From the sequence record PZ019085.1: DNA of 64,000 nucleotides. One strand, 5' to 3'. Of this stretch, positions 5,026 through 60,400 are shown piece by piece. This DNA is from a phage. The position numbers were made by a program, and so were the translations under genes. Positions within the stretch are counted from its first letter, which is position 1. Each line of letters opens with the position of its first letter. The notes under the pieces were generated by a model. That model was not told where the DNA came from, searched no databases, and saw only the letters and a list, made by a program, of their open reading frames with translations.

Positions 5026-5240
5026 TGGCCTCTACTATTACCGGGTTATTGGACTTTCAAGAAAAGGTCAACAAAATTTGTAGTGAATACTTAAAGTATC
5101 TTGAAGAAGACCTTGAAGATTGTAAGGAAGAAGGCGAAGAAGACTATGCTGACCAGCGTCGTCGCCAAATCGAAGAGATGAGGCATTTCGCCAATATGGT
5201 ATCTAAAGAATCTTGGGCTTTAACTCCATTTTATCAATAA
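5025..5240 (+). CDS. Hypothetical acidic protein
   Basis: ORF track. Confidence 0.45.
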   Translation: MASTITGLLDFQEKVNKICSEYLKYLEEDLEDCKEEGEEDYADQRRRQIEEMRHFANMVSKESWALTPFYQ

Positions 5241-5244
5241 AGTA

Positions 5245-5295
5245 GTTTACTTCTCCTCTAGATGTGTTACTATAGACCTGTCAACTAGAGGAGAA
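5245..5295 (+). promoter_or_regulatory. Early promoter with 11-bp inverted repeat ttctcctctag/ctagaggagaa bracketing the -10 and forming the SD
   Basis: gtttac at 5245-5250; perfect inverted repeat 5251-5261 / 5285-5295; ATG at 5302. Confidence 0.55.
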
Positions 5296-5301
5296 ATCAA
5301 A

Positions 5302-5760
5302 ATGACTATCAATTCAGACGTTTTTATCCGCCGTAATAAACTCCGTCGAATCTTTGAAACGGAGTTCCGCAAAATAAATGCCGGTATAAAAGATGCTGCA
5401 AAGTCTCTTGGACTACCAGGCTTTCATATCAAGTATTCTCAACATCTCTTAGATCGTGCCATCCAGAGAGAAATAGATGAGAACTACGTTTTTGAATTAT
5501 TTCGTAAAGTAAAAAATCATGTTAAAGAAGTTGCAGAATTTTTATCAATGCCGGCACGTCCAGATGTTGATGAAGATTTTGTCGAAGGCGTCGAATATCG
5601 CCCAGGCCGTTTAGAAATAACTGATGGAAATCTTTGGTTAGGACTTACAGTCTGTCGCGAAAATCCAGCATTCAAAATGAAGACTCTTCAATGCAGAATG
5701 GCTATTATTAACAGTAAACGACTACCAGGAAAAGCTTCTAAAGCAGTGATTAAAATCTAG
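5302..5760 (+). CDS. Hypothetical protein
   Basis: ORF track; strong SD. Confidence 0.55.
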   Translation: MTINSDVFIRRNKLRRIFETEFRKINAGIKDAAKSLGLPGFHIKYSQHLLDRAIQREIDENYVFELFRKVKNHVKEVAEFLSMPARPDVDEDFVEGVEYRPGRLEITDGNLWLGLTVCRENPAFKMKTLQCRMAIINSKRLPGKASKAVIKI

Positions 5761-8858: not shown

Positions 8859-8887
8859 AGCCCCTTCCTTACGGTTGGGGCTTTTTT
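8859..8887 (+). terminator. Rho-independent terminator
   Basis: Stem agcccc/ggggct with a following T-run. Confidence 0.6.
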
Positions 8888-8897
8888 GCATTTAGCA

Positions 8898-8950
8898 GTT
8901 TACTTCTCCTCAGGTTGTGTTATAGTAGACCTTACTTACTAGAGGAGAAC
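8898..8950 (+). promoter_or_regulatory. Early promoter with inverted repeat (ttctcctc / gaggagaa) overlapping the SD
   Basis: gtttac at 8898-8903; tatagt -10; right repeat arm forms the SD before ATG 8954. Confidence 0.5.
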
Positions 8951-8953
8951 GTT

Positions 8954-9133
8954 ATGACACGTAAAGAAAAGATTTCTAAGTTGATGTTTTTGATTGAAGA
9001 GTACGCTAATGCGGTATCTGATTGGGAAAATGCTCATGGTTGCGAAGATGGAGACATCGACATTAACAGAGCTATGAAAAAGATGGCCGATGCCCACACC
9101 GAATTGCAAATGTATGTTAACGAGATTATGTGA
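8954..9133 (+). CDS. Hypothetical protein
   Basis: ATG at 8954 after gaggag. Confidence 0.45.
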   Translation: MTRKEKISKLMFLIEEYANAVSDWENAHGCEDGDIDINRAMKKMADAHTELQMYVNEIM

Positions 9134-9612: not shown

Positions 9613-9776
9613 TTTACGTCTTGGTAGGACTATGATATAGTAATCCTACCAAAACAAATGGAGAACAAAATGAAACTTTTGCTTATCGCTTATGTTGTAG
9701 TACAATACAATTATCCGATGTTTACTTATAACATGGTAAACGGCATAGTGAATCTTATTGAAACGAGTATGGTAAA

Positions 9777-12255: not shown

Positions 12256-12374
12256 ATGTGGGGACCTTCGGGTCCCTTTAGGGGGTTAAAATATTTTTAA
12301 AAAAGTAGTGTACATGCTTTTAGGATATGTTATTATAGACCTATCGAAACGAAATGAGTAAATTGGAGAATAAA

Positions 12375-13781: not shown

Positions 13782-13839
13782 TTGTTTACAAGGTCTATGG
13801 TTATGTTATTATAGACCTATCAACTACTGGAGGTAAAAC

Positions 13840-14367: not shown

Positions 14368-14429
14368 ACGCTTTACCCAAGGACGGGTTATAATGGTTTT
14401 GAGTTCCAATTCAATATGAGGAAATAGTT

Positions 14430-15425: not shown

Positions 15426-15480
15426 TGTACAACCAGGGATGGTTGGAGTATAATAAATTTTTCAACATGAGGAATATAAA

Positions 15481-19489: not shown

Positions 19490-19524
19490 TAAATACCCTT
19501 ATCTATTTAAGGTAAGGGTTTATC

Positions 19525-23245: not shown

Positions 23246-23383
23246 CATTTCTAATATAATCCATTGGAATCTTCACTTCACTATCTCCTTGTGCCCCTCT
23301 CAAATCAAAAATATTTTCATAAAACAGTTTACATCCTCAATAGATGTGTTAAGATTAAACCATCTACTATAGAGGAAAATAAA

Positions 23384-23566
23384 ATGACAATTGAAGATAA
23401 AGAAATTAAGGTCGACCAGTACTATTCTGTCAACGGTAATGCAGTACAGATAACCAGAGTTTCAAGCCTGGATGTTTGGTACCGTTCAATCAAATATCCA
23501 GAAATTGGTGAAATGCTTTGTGACCGTGGTATCTTCTGTTCAATTGCGAAGGAAATTAAGTCATGA
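23384..23566 (+). CDS. Hypothetical small protein
   Basis: ATG 23384 after agagg. Confidence 0.4.
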   Translation: MTIEDKEIKVDQYYSVNGNAVQITRVSSLDVWYRSIKYPEIGEMLCDRGIFCSIAKEIKS

Positions 23567-25369: not shown

Positions 25370-25635
25370 AACTATCTCGAATCGCTATAACTGAAGAAAA
25401 GCTGGGCGAATTTTACGTCGACAACTTTATGAAAGTCACGTATTTTCCATTCGTTAAAGGTGTTGGTTTTTGGGAAACTCATGTATCTCAATTAAACGAA
25501 GGCGACTATAACGAAACACATGAGAACTTTTTAGATTTTCTTTATAATGCCGGTCTTACTGAGCTTTATATCGATATCCATGAGTTCAAACGTTTAATGG
25601 AAAAAGTGTTTCAGGCTTATTGTTTGCTCCGATAG
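25366..25635 (+). CDS. Hypothetical protein
   Basis: ORF track. Confidence 0.45.
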   Translation: MKLSRIAITEEKLGEFYVDNFMKVTYFPFVKGVGFWETHVSQLNEGDYNETHENFLDFLYNAGLTELYIDIHEFKRLMEKVFQAYCLLR

Positions 25636-25707
25636 TATCTCGTGCTTTAAGATAGGTCTCTAAATATTATGATATAATAGACCTATGAATTGAGCCAAGA
25701 GGTACTT

Positions 25708-26265
25708 ATGACTGAACAAAAACCTAAAAATAACTATGTGAATAATAAAGAGCTTCTCGCCGCTATAATCGAGTGGAAAAAGGAGCTCTTAAATAATAAA
25801 GACCCAAACAAAATTATTCGTCAGAATGATACCATCGGTTTAGCAATTATGCTTATTGCCGAAGGCCTGTCTAAACGTTTCAACTTTTCAGGATATACCC
25901 AGTCTTGGAAGCAGGAGATGATTGCAGATGGGATTGAAGCCTCTATTAAGGGACTTCATAATTTCGACGAAACTAAGTACAATAACCCACATGCATACAT
26001 AACTCGAGCTTGTTTTAATGCTTTTGTCCAACGTATCAAAAAAGAACGTAAGGAAGTTGCAAAGAAATATAGTTACTTCGTTCATAATGTCTACGACAGT
26101 CATGACGATGATATGGTAGCGTTAGTAGATGAAACGTTTATTCAAGACATCTACGATAAAATGACGCATTATGAAGAATCCGCTTATAAAGCTCCTGGGG
26201 CTGAAAAGAAGGAAGTTGTTAGCGATTCGCCTAGTTTGGATTTTTTATATGAGGATGACAATTGA
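25708..26265 (+). CDS. 55: Late-transcription sigma factor gp55
   Basis: [35 protein letters not shown]... matches T4 gp55. Confidence 0.95.
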
Positions 26266-30438: not shown

Positions 30439-30492
30439 ACGCTTTAACACGATGTGGTTATAATGACCACATCAAATTAAATGGAGAACAAC

Positions 30493-36606: not shown

Positions 36607-36646
36607 TATAATGCCAAGGACGGCCAACTAATTAAATGAGAGAAAT

Positions 36647-46254: not shown

Positions 46255-46280
46255 AAAAAAGGAGCCTTCGGGCTCCTTTC
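46255..46280 (+). terminator. Terminator-like UUCG hairpin
   Basis: aaaggagcc-ttcg-ggctccttt. Confidence 0.5.
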
Positions 46281-46342
46281 GGGGTTTACATCTTCCTCTA
46301 GGCATGATATGATGTACTTACACCAACCAAGAGGAAAACACT

Positions 46343-46717: not shown

Positions 46718-46768
46718 GTTTACTTCTCCAGTAGTTGTGTTATTATAGACCTATCAACTACTGGAGAA
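46718..46768 (+). promoter_or_regulatory. Early promoter with 14-bp inverted repeat ttctccagtagttg/caactactggagaa bracketing the -10 and forming the SD
   Basis: gtttac at 46718-46723, tattat at 46741-46746; repeat arms 46724-46737 and 46755-46768. Confidence 0.55.
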
Positions 46769-46772
46769 CAAA

Positions 46773-47090
46773 ATGAAAACCATCGATTGTAAAGCAGAAT
46801 TTAAGATTTTTTATCACGGTTCAAGTAGTTCAGCTAACATCGAAAACATGCTTTGTCCTCCTGAAGAAACAGGAGTTCTGTCTGAAACAGGACGTAAGAA
46901 AAACTTGGATCGTGTATTCTTTACTGAAGATATCGGTTTAGCAAAGATTTATGCAGGACGAGCAGCACGCTCTTATGGAGGTGAACCACGTCTCTATCGA
47001 GTAATTTCTCCGGTAGATGTAGTTCAAATGAATGATACTAAAGGCGCTACAGTTTATCACGCTGAATGGGCATTTTGCGAGGAAATATGA
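46773..47090 (+). CDS. Hypothetical protein
   Basis: ORF track. Confidence 0.45.
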   Translation: MKTIDCKAEFKIFYHGSSSSANIENMLCPPEETGVLSETGRKKNLDRVFFTEDIGLAKIYAGRAARSYGGEPRLYRVISPVDVVQMNDTKGATVYHAEWAFCEEI

Positions 47091-48023: not shown

Positions 48024-48086
48024 ACTTGTTTACATTATAGATGGACTATAGTATAGTAGTCCTATCAAATCAACTAAGGAGTTAAA

Positions 48087-49718: not shown

Positions 49719-49757
49719 TATGATGGCCTTATTAATTTAAGGCCTCTGGAGAATACT

Positions 49758-50780
49758 ATGGCTGAATGGATAGATAATGAATTTGCTTATCGTGCGTTTT
49801 CTCACCTACCTCGTTTTAGACAAATCAATAATTCAAGCACATTTAAATTAACATTTCGATGTCCAGTTTGTGGCGACTCCCAGACAGATGCAATGAAAGC
49901 TCGCGGATGGTATTATGGCGGTACTCCAGGTAATGTGCATTGCTATAACTGTCAATATCATAATACAATTTCCGGATACTTAAAAGAGTATGATGAAGAG
50001 CTTTATCGCGAATATCTAATGGAAGTTCGTAAAGAAAAAGCTAGAATGGAACCAAAGATTGAAAAGGTTCCTGAAGCTAAGCCGGAGCCAGAGAAAAAGA
50101 CTATAAATTCTTTGCCGTCTTGTTCTCGTCTGGACAAGCTGCCTGAAGAGCATCCTATTGTGAAATATGTTAAGTCTCGGTGTATTCCTAAAGAATCATG
50201 GAACAGATTATGGTTCACATTAGAATGGCCCAAATTGGTCAACAAGATTCAACCTGGTACGTATAAGAAAGAGATTCCCGAACCACGTTTAGTGATTCCT
50301 ATTTTTAATAAAGATGGTAAGGCCGAGTCATTCCAAGGACGTGCACTTCGTAAAGATGCTCCTCAGAAATATATCACTATTAAAGCGTTTGAGTCTGCAA
50401 CAAAAATTTATGGTGTTGAACGTGTTAAGGAAGGGGACGTCTGGGTAATGGAAGGTCCTATTGATAGTTTATTCATACCAAATGCAATCGCTATTACAGG
50501 CGGCTCAATAGATTTAGATGTGGTACCATTTAAAGAACGTCGGGTATGGGTAATGGATAATGAACCTAGGCATCCGGATACTATAGCTCGCATGAAGCGA
50601 TTAGTTGATGCAGGCGAACGTGTCATGTTCTGGGACCGAGCTCCATGGAGATCAAAGGATGTGAATGATATGGTAATGAAAGAAAATGCAACACCACAAG
50701 AAATTTTAGAATACATGAAACAGAATATTTCAAGTGGGTTGCATGCTAAAATGAGATTATCTCGTTATTCGAAGATTTAA
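49758..50780 (+). CDS. 61: DNA primase gp61
   Basis: N-terminal zinc ribbon CPVCGDS ... CYNC; TOPRIM-like region. Confidence 0.9.
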   Translation: MAEWIDNEFAYRAFSHLPRFRQINNSSTFKLTFRCPVCGDSQTDAMKARGWYYGGTPGNVHCYNCQYHNTISGYLKEYDEELYREYLMEVRKEKARMEPKIEKVPEAKPEPEKKTINSLPSCSRLDKLPEEHPIVKYVKSRCIPKESWNRLWFTLEWPKLVNKIQPGTYKKEIPEPRLVIPIFNKDGKAESFQGRALRKDAPQKYITIKAFESATKIYGVERVKEGDVWVMEGPIDSLFIPNAIAITGGSIDLDVVPFKERRVWVMDNEPRHPDTIARMKRLVDAGERVMFWDRAPWRSKDVNDMVMKENATPQEILEYMKQNISSGLHAKMRLSRYSKI

Positions 50781-52212: not shown

Positions 52213-52220
52213 ATAATTTA

Positions 52221-52246
52221 AGGAATCCTTCGGGATTCCTTTTTTT
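52221..52246 (+). terminator. Rho-independent terminator
   Basis: aggaatcc-ttcg-ggattcct followed by six T. Confidence 0.75.
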
Positions 52247-53395: not shown

Positions 53396-53792
53396 TATGG
53401 ACCTTATGAGTATGTTTGACGAGCCTGAAGTTGAGGCTCCTAAAGTGCATCGTAGTGAACTTATTGATGAACTAGATAGTATTATACAACGACACGGCTT
53501 TAGTTTACCTGTTGAAGCCCTGAAAGACCTTGCCTCTTATTATGACGACCCGCCACCATGGAGTCCTTGGAAATGAAAGAAAAATTTAAAGAGAAATTCT
53601 TACTAGAAATCAAGGAAAAAGACTTTGAGACATGGTACCGAATGGTGAAAGGGTTGACATTGCTTTTTAAAGCGTCCTTATTCATGTTAGAACAACCTGG
53701 TCCTGATGGACCTTTAGTAGGAAAGCTTAAAAAGTAGTTTACATTCCCTCCTCTCGTGTTATGATAGACTTATCTTTAAATGGAGGTCTATC

Positions 53793-54374
53793 ATGACATG
53801 TCAATCTGAACTTCAAGAACGCGAATACCTAACAAATCTGATTGATAGCAAATTCACCCGCCAAGAACAAAACATTCTCTGGGCTTGCACTGATTCTAAG
53901 GAAGACCCGGATTTCCACTATGAATTAGACCATCTTGTTCGTAAGCATATGACTTCTACAGTACCAGTAGAACTCTACCGTGGTGTAACTCCAGAAGAAA
54001 TAGAACGTCTTTCACTTCTTTCTGTTGGATGCCATTGGTCTCCTGGACGAGTAACATCGTTCACAACTGATTTCAACACAGCTCGTCAATTCTCTGGGAG
54101 TTGGGAATATCAGACGTACACTATTCTTAGTCTCAGGAATGCTCCATTCATTTTTGATTACTACCAAAACATGGTTAACATTGTACTCGCCGGAAAGAAC
54201 CCTAAGCATGTTATGGAAGAAACGCGTGTTGACGTCCTAGATATGATTGAATCTGAACAAGAGTACATGGTCTCAGGTATCTCTAGATTTGAGATTGTGG
54301 AAATTGAAGAGTTAGAGTATGACCCTTTGTCTCGAGTATACAAAATCATTCACTTAAAGATGTTGAATTTTTAG
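53793..54374 (+). CDS. ADP-ribosyltransferase-like protein (ModB-like)
   Basis: R-S-E triad candidates (LYRG, SFTTD, EQEYMVS); position between soc and dda as for T4 modA/modB. Confidence 0.55.
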   Translation: MTCQSELQEREYLTNLIDSKFTRQEQNILWACTDSKEDPDFHYELDHLVRKHMTSTVPVELYRGVTPEEIERLSLLSVGCHWSPGRVTSFTTDFNTARQFSGSWEYQTYTILSLRNAPFIFDYYQNMVNIVLAGKNPKHVMEETRVDVLDMIESEQEYMVSGISRFEIVEIEELEYDPLSRVYKIIHLKMLNF

Positions 54375-55040: not shown

Positions 55041-55193
55041 CTGGATTGGAATAACCGGATGGAACTCAGAACCATTATAACACATAAAAAATTAAAGCAT
55101 TTTACGAAAAAAGAGTGTACACTACCTGAGGGCATGATATTATAAGACCTATCAGCTAAATGATCTAACGTCCGTAAGACAGAGGAAAATATT

Positions 55194-58251: not shown

Positions 58252-58317
58252 AATCAGTTTACAACCAAGGATGGTTGTGGTATAATCTTTCTATCTTAAC
58301 TAAACAGGAAAAACATT

Positions 58318-58812: not shown

Positions 58813-58874
58813 TGTTTTACATCCAAGGATGGATGGAGTATAATGAATTCAACTTAAACAAAGAGAGAAAAAAT

Positions 58875-59763: not shown

Positions 59764-59814
59764 GTTTACTTCTCCTCTGGTTTTGATATTATACCCATAT
59801 CAACCAGAGGAGAA
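59764..59814 (+). promoter_or_regulatory. Early promoter with 13-bp inverted repeat ttctcctctggtt/aaccagaggagaa bracketing the -10 and forming the SD
   Basis: gtttac at 59764-59769, tattat at 59787-59792; repeat arms 59770-59782 and 59802-59814. Confidence 0.55.
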
Positions 59815-59818
59815 TAAT

Positions 59819-60343
59819 ATGTTAGTTTACCGCGTAGAACGTAGTTTTTGTACTCAACGTGAATCATTACCAGGAATTGCTATTGAAGACGGTAAAGCCG
59901 TCAGAATTTGGGAAACCTCTTGGAATAAAGAACCTCGCTCGCCGTACGGTTGGTCGGGCACCGACAACTCTGAAGAAACATGGGAGTTCCTTGATAAGCA
60001 TGGAATACTCTCAGGTAACTTCTACCATCATGGCGACAACTATAATGTCCCTAATCGTCCTACAGTAAATGAAGACAAACTCCTTGAACAAAATATCTTA
60101 AGATACTATAGAATTGAGCACACATTTGAATTGAGTGAAGATTGGGCTCAATGGTTCTATTTTGGATTTGAAAGTGTTGACGCGGTTTATGCATGGTTTG
60201 ATGACCAGGTGGATGTTGAACTCTTGAAAGCTAAAGGATACTACATCGCTGTCTATGAAGCACCTGATTTCATCCTCGGAAGTTGTCAATTAATGTTTAG
60301 ACGTTCATTGGCAGAACAAGTTGATTTTATTTTGCTAAAATGA
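59819..60343 (+). CDS. Hypothetical protein
   Basis: ATG 59819 after agaggag. Confidence 0.5.
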   Translation: MLVYRVERSFCTQRESLPGIAIEDGKAVRIWETSWNKEPRSPYGWSGTDNSEETWEFLDKHGILSGNFYHHGDNYNVPNRPTVNEDKLLEQNILRYYRIEHTFELSEDWAQWFYFGFESVDAVYAWFDDQVDVELLKAKGYYIAVYEAPDFILGSCQLMFRRSLAEQVDFILLK

Positions 60344-60400
60344 TGTACAACAACTATGGTCTATGATACTATAGACCTATCAAAACAAGAGGAGAATATT

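Follow-up and report, generated by a model that had tools for sequence, protein, structure and literature searches.

Several genes of bacteriophage T4 are controlled by an RNA hairpin that sequesters the Shine-Dalgarno (SD) sequence and that has a promoter inside it. This arrangement is known for e, soc, 49 and I-TevI, with translational control of about 100-fold (PMC3014915), and reviews list an SD-sequestering hairpin with an internal promoter only for e, soc, 49, I-TevI/II/III, segB and mobE (PMC3014915, PMC2988022). In the words of Edgell et al., the genes under this control "are all late genes" (PMC2988022). Here we describe a related layout at early promoters in a 64,000-nt stretch of phage DNA (record PZ019085.1; "the window" denotes all 64,000 nt). 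At regB and at six other early genes of the window, one arm of an inverted repeat lies upstream of the predicted transcription start and the other covers the SD or the start codon. We propose that these genes probably carry a promoter-embedded RNA switch, in which the SD would be hidden on read-through RNA and open on the local transcript.

Two further bodies of work bear on this layout. The hexamer GTTTAC at -36..-31 is common to T4-like early promoters, and the 57 early promoters of RB69 were given as sequence logos only (PMC1524935). That survey links the promoters neither to an inverted repeat nor to the SD, and hairpin, stem-loop and palindrome are not mentioned in it (PMC1524935). The papers on PeSL (early promoter plus stem-loop) cassettes likewise do not link the stem to the SD (PMC2839356, PMC4122927). 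No description of an early-promoter version of the T4 hairpins was found in the literature searched, and an earlier mention in the older T4 literature is possible.

BLAST against phage genomes gave the window 97-99% identity to RB69/JS09-like T4-type coliphages of the genus Mosigvirus. Mapping of the JS09 annotation onto it placed about 124 co-oriented genes on the + strand, in the order e.2/nudE/e/denV, regB, tk, nrdC, 49, nrdD, 55, 46/47, 45, 44, 62, regA, 43, uvsX, 41, 61, 56, soc, modB/modA, dda and motB, up to gene 39. By this gene content, the window is the early and middle region of a T4-type phage. The start of regB contains the following elements.

5245-5250, + strand: -35 hexamer GTTTAC of the regB early promoter, a T4-type early consensus.
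5251-5261, + strand: left arm TTCTCCTCTAG (anti-SD), in the spacer between -35 and -10, carried only by RNA started upstream.
5268-5273, + strand: -10 hexamer TACTAT with TGTGT just before it, in the loop of the predicted read-through hairpin.
5273-5284, + strand: conserved box TAGACCTGTCAA, the discriminator and the predicted first transcribed bases.
5285-5295, + strand: right arm CTAGAGGAGAA, which is the regB SD; the regB ATG is at 5302.

The arms TTCTCCTCTAG and CTAGAGGAGAA form a perfect inverted repeat of 11 bp. When the coordinates were checked, the order of GTTTAC, left arm, -10, box and right arm as SD was found exactly as the original prediction had given it. The local transcript is predicted to start near 5280, from a 7-nt rule and the preference of RB69 early promoters for C at -3..-1 (PMC1524935). 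The stop codon of the upstream gene vs.3 is at 5240, four bases ahead of the -35. A scan of the 1.9 kb ahead of regB, where the genes are co-oriented, found no strong terminator; read-through RNA is therefore expected here.

The accessibility of the SD was expressed as an opening cost, the ensemble free energy needed to make the SD window (-15..-4) single-stranded, computed for all genes in a context of -100..+30. At regB the predicted cost is 12.9 kcal/mol on the read-through RNA and 2.9 on the local transcript. To survey the window, a module was defined as a GTTTAC-like -35, a spacer of 17-18 nt, a TAnnnT -10 and an annotated start codon downstream, and 22 compact modules were curated. Their start codons lie mostly 26-31 nt beyond the -10 (38 nt at 12308 and 50 nt at 55115). 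Seven of the 22, and a weak eighth, are of a type that we call A, in which the stem buries the SD or the AUG and the left arm lies upstream of the transcription start. They are listed below by the start of their -35, all on the + strand, with opening costs in kcal/mol and the z score of the fold against shuffled sequences.

1689, denV, module 1695-1742: left arm TTCCTCCAAG at 1695-1704, -10 at 1713-1718, right arm and SD CTTGGAGGAA at 1733-1742, ATG at 1746; cost 10.8 read-through and 2.0 local; z -3.6.
5245, regB: as above; z -2.4.
8898, mobD.2a, module 8904-8949: left arm TTCTCCTC at 8904-8911, -10 at 8921-8926, right arm and SD GAGGAGAA at 8942-8949, ATG at 8954; a weaker stem with a terminator-like hairpin (8859-8882) ahead of it; cost 8.7 and 2.4; z -0.7.
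23327, 55.6, module 23335-23375: two-part stem of CCTC (23335-23338) with GAGG (23372-23375) and TAGATG (23341-23346) with CATCTA (23361-23366), -10 at 23350-23355, ATG at 23384; cost 9.3 and 0.9; z -1.9.
46718, ORF040c, module 46724-46768: perfect 14-bp stem of TTCTCCAGTAGTTG (46724-46737) and CAACTACTGGAGAA (46755-46768), -10 at 46741-46746, ATG at 46773; cost 18.1 and 3.6; z -5.0.
53737, modB, module 53755-53800: -10 plus discriminator CGTGTTATGATAGACT (53755-53770) pairing with GGTCTATCATGACATG (53785-53800), which is the 3' end of the SD plus the AUG (53793), in a 16-pair stem; cost 13.4 and 3.9; z -5.25.
59764, motB.2, module 59770-59814: perfect 13-bp stem of TTCTCCTCTGGTT (59770-59782) and AACCAGAGGAGAA (59802-59814), -10 at 59787-59792, ATG at 59819; cost 19.6 and 1.0; z -5.9.
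46284, ORF041c, module 46293-46336, weak and doubtful: TTCCTCT (46293-46299) and AGAGGAA (46330-46336), with the gene 41 terminator hairpin (46261-46276) upstream; cost 4.0, which is no outlier; z -0.2.

The repeats at 1689, 5245, 46718 and 59764 are perfect over 10-14 bp. Every left arm lies within the spacer or ends at about -3, and any start from these promoters is downstream of it; therefore a local transcript could not form the stem. Burial of the SD or AUG fits about one-third of the early-promoter modules. The original prediction had placed the same layout at more than 15 gene starts, which is an overstatement, and most of its eight examples do bury the SD, the exceptions being those at 13783 and 60343, where the SD is free. 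At its example 53737, the SD and AUG are indeed buried, but the stem does not bracket the -10; the -10 and discriminator themselves pair. The conserved stretch that it had noted is real: the box TAGACCTATCAA has 7 matches at no more than one mismatch where 0.35 are expected, all on the + strand and directly 3' of a -10. The AGACC part of this box corresponds to the C-rich -3..-1 of RB69 early promoters (PMC1524935).

On read-through RNA the seven type A genes have predicted opening costs of 8.7-19.6 kcal/mol, and on the predicted local transcript, which holds the right arm alone, the costs are 0.9-3.9 kcal/mol. Folding thus bears out the predicted states of the SD, hidden on the one RNA and free on the other, at all seven sites. 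The 102 genes without a module have a median cost of 4.0 and a 90th percentile of 7.1 kcal/mol, and the seven genes are at or above the 94th percentile of this set. A cost of at least 8.7 kcal/mol was found for 7 of 22 module genes and for 7 of 102 others (Fisher p=0.003). As positive controls, genes e (13.95 kcal/mol) and 49 (12.55 kcal/mol) were among the top outliers; their hairpins, at 893-920 and 19495-19519 in the window, are classical late-promoter-in-hairpin structures, covering the SD of the lysozyme gene and of the endonuclease VII gene. We regard the metric as validated because these known hairpins rank among the highest of the other genes. The read-through stems at the seven sites have predicted minimum free energies of -12 to -24 kcal/mol, and stems of -17 to -24 kcal/mol are as stable as the gene e hairpin of this phage (-18.3) or exceed it.

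The complementarity is specific to each site. When the arms were paired with partners from other sites, a permutation that controls for the TTCTCC/GGAGAA consensus common to the sites, the own pairs beat all 5000 permutations in both stem length and duplex energy (p<0.0002). Outside the SD core the stem sequences are different at each site, and the arms nevertheless pair: AAG/CTT, TCTAG/CTAGA, AGTAGTTG/CAACTACT and TCTGGTT/AACCAGA. A protein operator or palindrome was ruled out, as the arms are different at every site. Promoter regions are not structured as a class, since promoter-only segments folded no better than random 46-nt windows (p=0.87); it is individual sites that stand out. No Rfam family matched at gathering score anywhere in the window.

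The pairing was followed in orthologues of regB and denV, to which covariation was confined because searches for motB.2 and modB gave too few loci. Upstream regions of regB in viral contigs, at 63-77% protein identity, keep stems of 10-15 bp with different inner sequences. The T4-type regB stem, TTTTCCTCTTGACTG with CAGTTAAGAGGAGAA, has 13 Watson-Crick and 2 G-U pairs, and the lineage at 63% identity has a 15-bp stem of TTTCTCCTCTTTATG and CATAAAGAGGAGAAA. In a further lineage, with a 12-bp stem of TCTCCTGTAAGT and ACTTACAGGAGA, the SD-proximal base is changed from G to C and the left arm carries the matching change. Among 33 distinct denV upstream sequences, 28 reach a read-through cost of 8 kcal/mol or more, and the local median is 2.4; four of the five exceptions come from loci with another promoter type, a terminator stem containing the -35 TTGAC. 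Own pairing exceeded cross pairing for denV (p<5e-5, 24 lineages) and for regB (p=0.003). Several denV lineages have the left arm in a new place, directly after the -10 (for example ATGTCCTCC...GGAGGACAT or ATAGTAGCCTT...GGAGGCTACTAT), and the SD continues to form the right arm; therefore selection follows the pairing of the SD and not a position in the promoter. In T4 itself, five early genes gave the following predicted costs.

T4 regB: read-through 18.8, local 2.7 kcal/mol.
T4 modB: read-through 16.1, local 1.8 kcal/mol.
T4 nrdC.8: read-through 15.4, local 3.4 kcal/mol.
T4 motB.2: read-through 15.0, local 0.3 kcal/mol.
T4 denV: read-through 11.2, local 2.6 kcal/mol.

Four genes, regB, denV, modB and motB.2, are thus predicted to be gated both in T4 and in this phage, and their stem sequences differ. 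The compensatory changes in regB and denV orthologues, together with T4, show that the pairing is under selection, and the arrangement is conserved from T4 to RB69-like and more distant relatives. The denV homologues at the four loci L094, L096, L100 and L102, on contigs of 345-378 kb, have a G+C-rich terminator hairpin followed by a T-run, and this stem holds the -35 TTGAC of the denV promoter (e.g. GGGTTGACttcgGTCAGCCCTTTTTGCTATAAT). An ORF040c homologue (locus L027, ~340-400) retains the right-arm sequence CAACTACTGGAGAA, preceded by a terminator and a bare TATAAT with neither GTTTAC nor a left arm. Its leader TATCAACTACTGGAGG is also found at 13819-13834 of the window, again without an anti-SD arm, and it seems that the leader is a shared cassette onto which left arms are fitted.

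The surroundings of the modules fit a function on read-through RNA. All five strong stems follow the upstream stop codon closely, with 0-4 nt between it and the -35 and no intervening terminator, and the two weak stems at 8898 and 46284 are directly behind the terminator-like hairpins 8859-8882 and 46261-46276. The repeat-free modules 12308 and 52256 likewise follow terminators, and JS98-like relatives have a terminator ahead of the ORF040c promoter and a stem decayed to 5 bp. The four terminator-like hairpins directly ahead of early promoters (8859-8882, 12271-12287, 46261-46276 and 52220-52241) form a PeSL arrangement of the PST/T4 style, and SD-hiding stems at the promoters behind them are weak or absent. 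The gene immediately ahead of denV is annotated as an internal head protein, and internal-protein genes are heavily expressed late. Anecdotally, the annotation mapping also placed indels relative to JS09 near 2.2-3.3 kb, 19.5 kb and 47.1 kb.

We propose the following mechanism for regB (5245-5304) and the six other early genes. A pyrimidine-rich anti-SD segment upstream of the transcription start, usually in the spacer and at modB formed by the -10 and discriminator, would pair with the gene's own SD or start-codon region about 25-35 nt downstream. RNA started upstream would carry both arms and fold into a hairpin of 10-16 bp whose loop holds the -10 and which should keep the 30S subunit from binding at that cistron; at modB the AUG would be buried too. 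RNA started locally would begin between the arms, with an unstructured leader of about 21 nt and a free SD. The genes would be translated solely from their own early promoters, in a short immediate-early pulse, and would be insulated from later or stronger upstream transcription, such as that of the internal-head-protein gene ahead of denV. The coupling of translation to local initiation that the original prediction had put forward is thus supported computationally at regB and six other sites, but not at more than 15. By analogy with the hairpin of T4 gene e, under which lysozyme synthesis falls about 100-fold (PMC3014915), we infer that the hairpins would reduce translation; the start sites, hairpin formation in vivo, and the size and purpose of the effect are likewise inferred. 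The only promoter from which RegB is made is an early one, shut off at 2-3 min, and production of the enzyme "must be tightly regulated" (PMC3014915). T4 proteomics places both RegB and ModB among the early proteins (PMC9697503).

Several observations weigh against this mechanism. Three of the eight stems, at 8898 (z -0.7), 23327 (z -1.9) and 46284 (z -0.2), are not significant against shuffled sequences, and regB itself is at -2.4, because shuffles of polypurine/polypyrimidine sequence fold well too. A cross-site consensus from MAFFT and RNAalifold on 12 modules recovered the stem, with double changes in six of seven pairs, but its energy was weak (-0.46 kcal/mol). It is negligible because the arm registers shift between sites, and we relied on the stems of each site and on permutation tests instead of alignment-based covariation. 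In vivo, the stems could be melted by helicases or by ribosomes translating upstream. Finally, repeats that leave the SD free occur at other early promoters, and the hairpins may have a general function of which SD burial is a side effect.

These other repeats are of two types. In four modules (9612, 13784, 48028 and 60343; type B) the SD is free: a left arm located in the spacer pairs with a right arm made up of the end of the -10 together with the AGACC box. The type B repeats, at 9621-9652, 13791-13818, 48043-48062 and 60358-60377, for example GGTCTAT...ATAGACC, have the -10 in the loop, and the hairpin is possible solely on read-through RNA. The same type of repeat is found in T4 (loci L155 and L156) at dmd, mobD.2, ipI, ipII, ipIII, motB, e.6, e.7 and trna.4. 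Three modules (15425, 58257 and 58815; type C) have a small hairpin AACCAaggaTGGTT entirely within the spacer. The type C hairpins, at 15431-15444, 58261-58278 and 58821-58834, read A(C/T)CCA-aGGa-TGG(T/A)T and are followed by TATAAT and a T-rich stretch. They resemble the RB49-type PeSL stem "between -35 and -10", and one of them (58259-58280) was called by the terminator scan. In all, 15 of the 22 modules have a promoter-associated stem with its left arm in the spacer, and the remaining 7 are free of repeats.

The SD-hiding modules overlap PeSL cassettes, and on one alternative account the stems would be the terminator or attenuator half of such mobile cassettes and sites of recombination, with the SD as right arm incidental to a compact layout. 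PeSLs are reported across T4-like phages (PMC4122927). PeSL stems of RB49 and phi1 lie over the -10 or between it and the -35; in a transcriptional fusion, one of them reduced lacZ expression as a strong terminator would (PMC2839356). The module sequences are alike enough for recombination, and the PeSL description covers types B and C. The repeats without the SD at other early promoters are site-specific: 6 bp or more are reached by 9 of 25 in T4, compared with 3.2% of cross pairs (p<5e-5), and the count in the window is 5 of 22 (p=0.0025). For the SD-type stems, however, an intrinsic terminator was rejected: the terminator scan called none of them, and no U-tract follows any of the eight right arms, after which an A-rich stretch has 1-4 T in 8 nt. 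The left arm of denV changes position between lineages and the right arm is still the SD, the SD-type stems tolerate a loop of 20-25 nt where a plain hairpin could be much tighter, and the same four genes are SD-gated in T4 and in this phage. The stems are also strong where a terminator is absent, and the two weak ones stand behind terminators. We therefore consider the PeSL account of the SD-type stems unlikely.

Translational coupling would turn the consequence around: a ribosome finishing the upstream gene would melt the left arm, and the downstream gene would be translated in step instead of being silenced. Coupling through SD-hiding hairpins that upstream translation opens is well established in other operons and in RNA phages, and the distance from the stop codon to the first paired base is short at 46718 (6 nt), 1689 (7 nt), and 5245 and 59764 (10 nt each). 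Yet the -35 hexamer always stands between stop and arm and keeps them 6 nt or more apart. Given the position of the ribosomal helicase, a ribosome that terminates melts RNA no further than about 5-7 nt beyond the stop codon; therefore at most the outermost pair would be opened. At 53737, 8898 and 23327, and likewise in the many denV lineages whose left arm follows the -10, stop and arm are separated by 17 to more than 100 nt. Coupling is, in our judgement, improbable.

A role as RNase shield would also make use of a hidden SD. The stem would protect the GGAG of the SD from RegB or other RNases on long transcripts; polycistronic RNA would survive, and promoter-proximal early RNA would be cut. 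The RegB site GGAGRAYARAA has to be single-stranded, and secondary structure readily inhibits the enzyme; most middle and all late RNAs with GGAG are RegB-resistant (PMC1702504, PMC3014915). Several gated SDs match the RegB consensus well (46718 at 11/11 and 59764 at 10/11), but the fit is no better at gated modules in general: the ungated 9612 and 12308 score 11/11, and the gated regB, denV and modB score 7-8/11. In T4 the denV SD is RegB-resistant through its 3' sequence (PMC1702504), yet the denV stem is the best conserved. The consensus fit and this resistance weaken RegB-specific shielding as the main purpose. We give shielding little credence as the explanation of the stems; it is compatible with translational gating and does not exclude it. 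Chance, a pyrimidine-rich spacer that happens to complement a purine-rich SD, is highly improbable: TTCTCC/GGAGAA is common to the sites, cross-site pairs of at least 8 bp occur in 18 of 462 comparisons, and shuffles of the regB site fold fairly well (z -2.4), but each site has its own inner stem sequence, which nonetheless pairs, the cross-site permutation tests reject a pure composition effect, and the compensatory orthologue changes and the conservation in T4 contradict it.

Hairpins were also seen near other gene starts. Upstream of gene 55 (ATG at 25708), positions 25634-25707 hold a nested hairpin of -24 kcal/mol (z -3.2). Its outer helix pairs the SD region with a segment about 65 nt upstream, and its inner helix, ATAGGTCT with AGACCTAT, surrounds a TATAAT; a MotA-box-like TGCTTTA is at 25644. 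The SD-opening cost of gene 55 is 15.7 kcal/mol here and 14.9 in T4, and this may be another promoter-gated gene. At gene 61 (primase, ATG at 49758), a hairpin GGCCTTattaatttAAGGCC at 49725-49744 is immediately 5' of the SD and directly after a -10-like TGTGATATGAT; the opening cost is 10.4 kcal/mol, and the fold is not significant against shuffles (z -1.3). Small repeats flank the -10 of MotA-box middle promoters (GCTTTA...TATAAT) at 14372-14400, 30444-30470 and 36610-36640, for example GATGTGGTtataatgACCACATC upstream of 45.2 (~30452-30474).

If such a promoter-embedded switch operated on a genome-wide scale, the translation of individual cistrons on the long, overlapping early and middle transcripts would be set by promoter choice and not by the presence of mRNA. 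T4 serves as the reference system for the timing of phage gene expression, and its early genes are on many overlapping transcripts; therefore the presence of an mRNA does not tell when the protein is made. A multi-omics study of T4 found a large unexplained discrepancy in timing between transcripts and proteins and called for the study of control at the SD (PMC9697503). A genome-wide switch could explain part of this mismatch, and it could explain how RegB hits early but not later RNAs with the same GGAG. An anti-SD arm in an early promoter would give a rule readable from sequence, that a gated gene is translated from its own promoter only, and the rule would cover potentially harmful early enzymes such as the RNase RegB and the ADP-ribosyltransferase ModB, and also DenV. 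The layout would also be a compact design for the insulation of genes in synthetic operons. Genome-wide, it is possible, although we hold it doubtful, that about one-third of T-even early promoters silence their gene on non-local RNA and that about another third carry some other promoter-spanning hairpin.

The promoters described here resemble the early consensus of RB69 (Nolan 2006), with GTTTAC as -35, TAnnnT as -10 and a C-rich -3..-1 (PMC1524935). Like the PeSLs (Arbiol 2010, Comeau 2014), they are compact units of an AT-rich UP region, a strong sigma-70-like early promoter, a stem-loop, SD and ATG, and they stand before many small early genes. The PeSL stems have been described as terminators or attenuators and as recombination points; the SD is drawn as a separate 3' element, and in PST and T4 the stem was reported upstream of the promoter. 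In the modules of the window, unlike the PeSLs, the SD itself serves as right arm and is followed by no U-tract, the effect is predicted to be on translation, and the SD-type stems reach further 3' than the PeSL stems described. As at T4 e, soc, 49 and I-TevI, and also at I-TevII/III, segB and Aeh1 mobE, the SD or AUG can pair with an upstream segment on long transcripts, and as at e, soc, 49 and I-TevI a promoter between the arms would give a shorter, translated RNA without the 5' arm, from starts that are predicted here. The hairpin-gated T4 genes use a late promoter (gp55; TATAAATA) or a middle promoter and are late genes that are switched on. Here, unlike e, soc, 49 and I-TevI, the promoter is a sigma-70 early promoter (GTTTAC-N17/18-TAnnnT), the genes are early ones such as regB, denV, modB and motB.2, and the anti-SD arm is inside the promoter spacer itself. 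The logic would be reversed from that of the late-gene hairpins, on in the early burst and off on later read-through RNA. We suggest that these modules represent a new, early-promoter variant of the "promoter inside hairpin" control of T4 late genes, with reversed timing and wide conservation.

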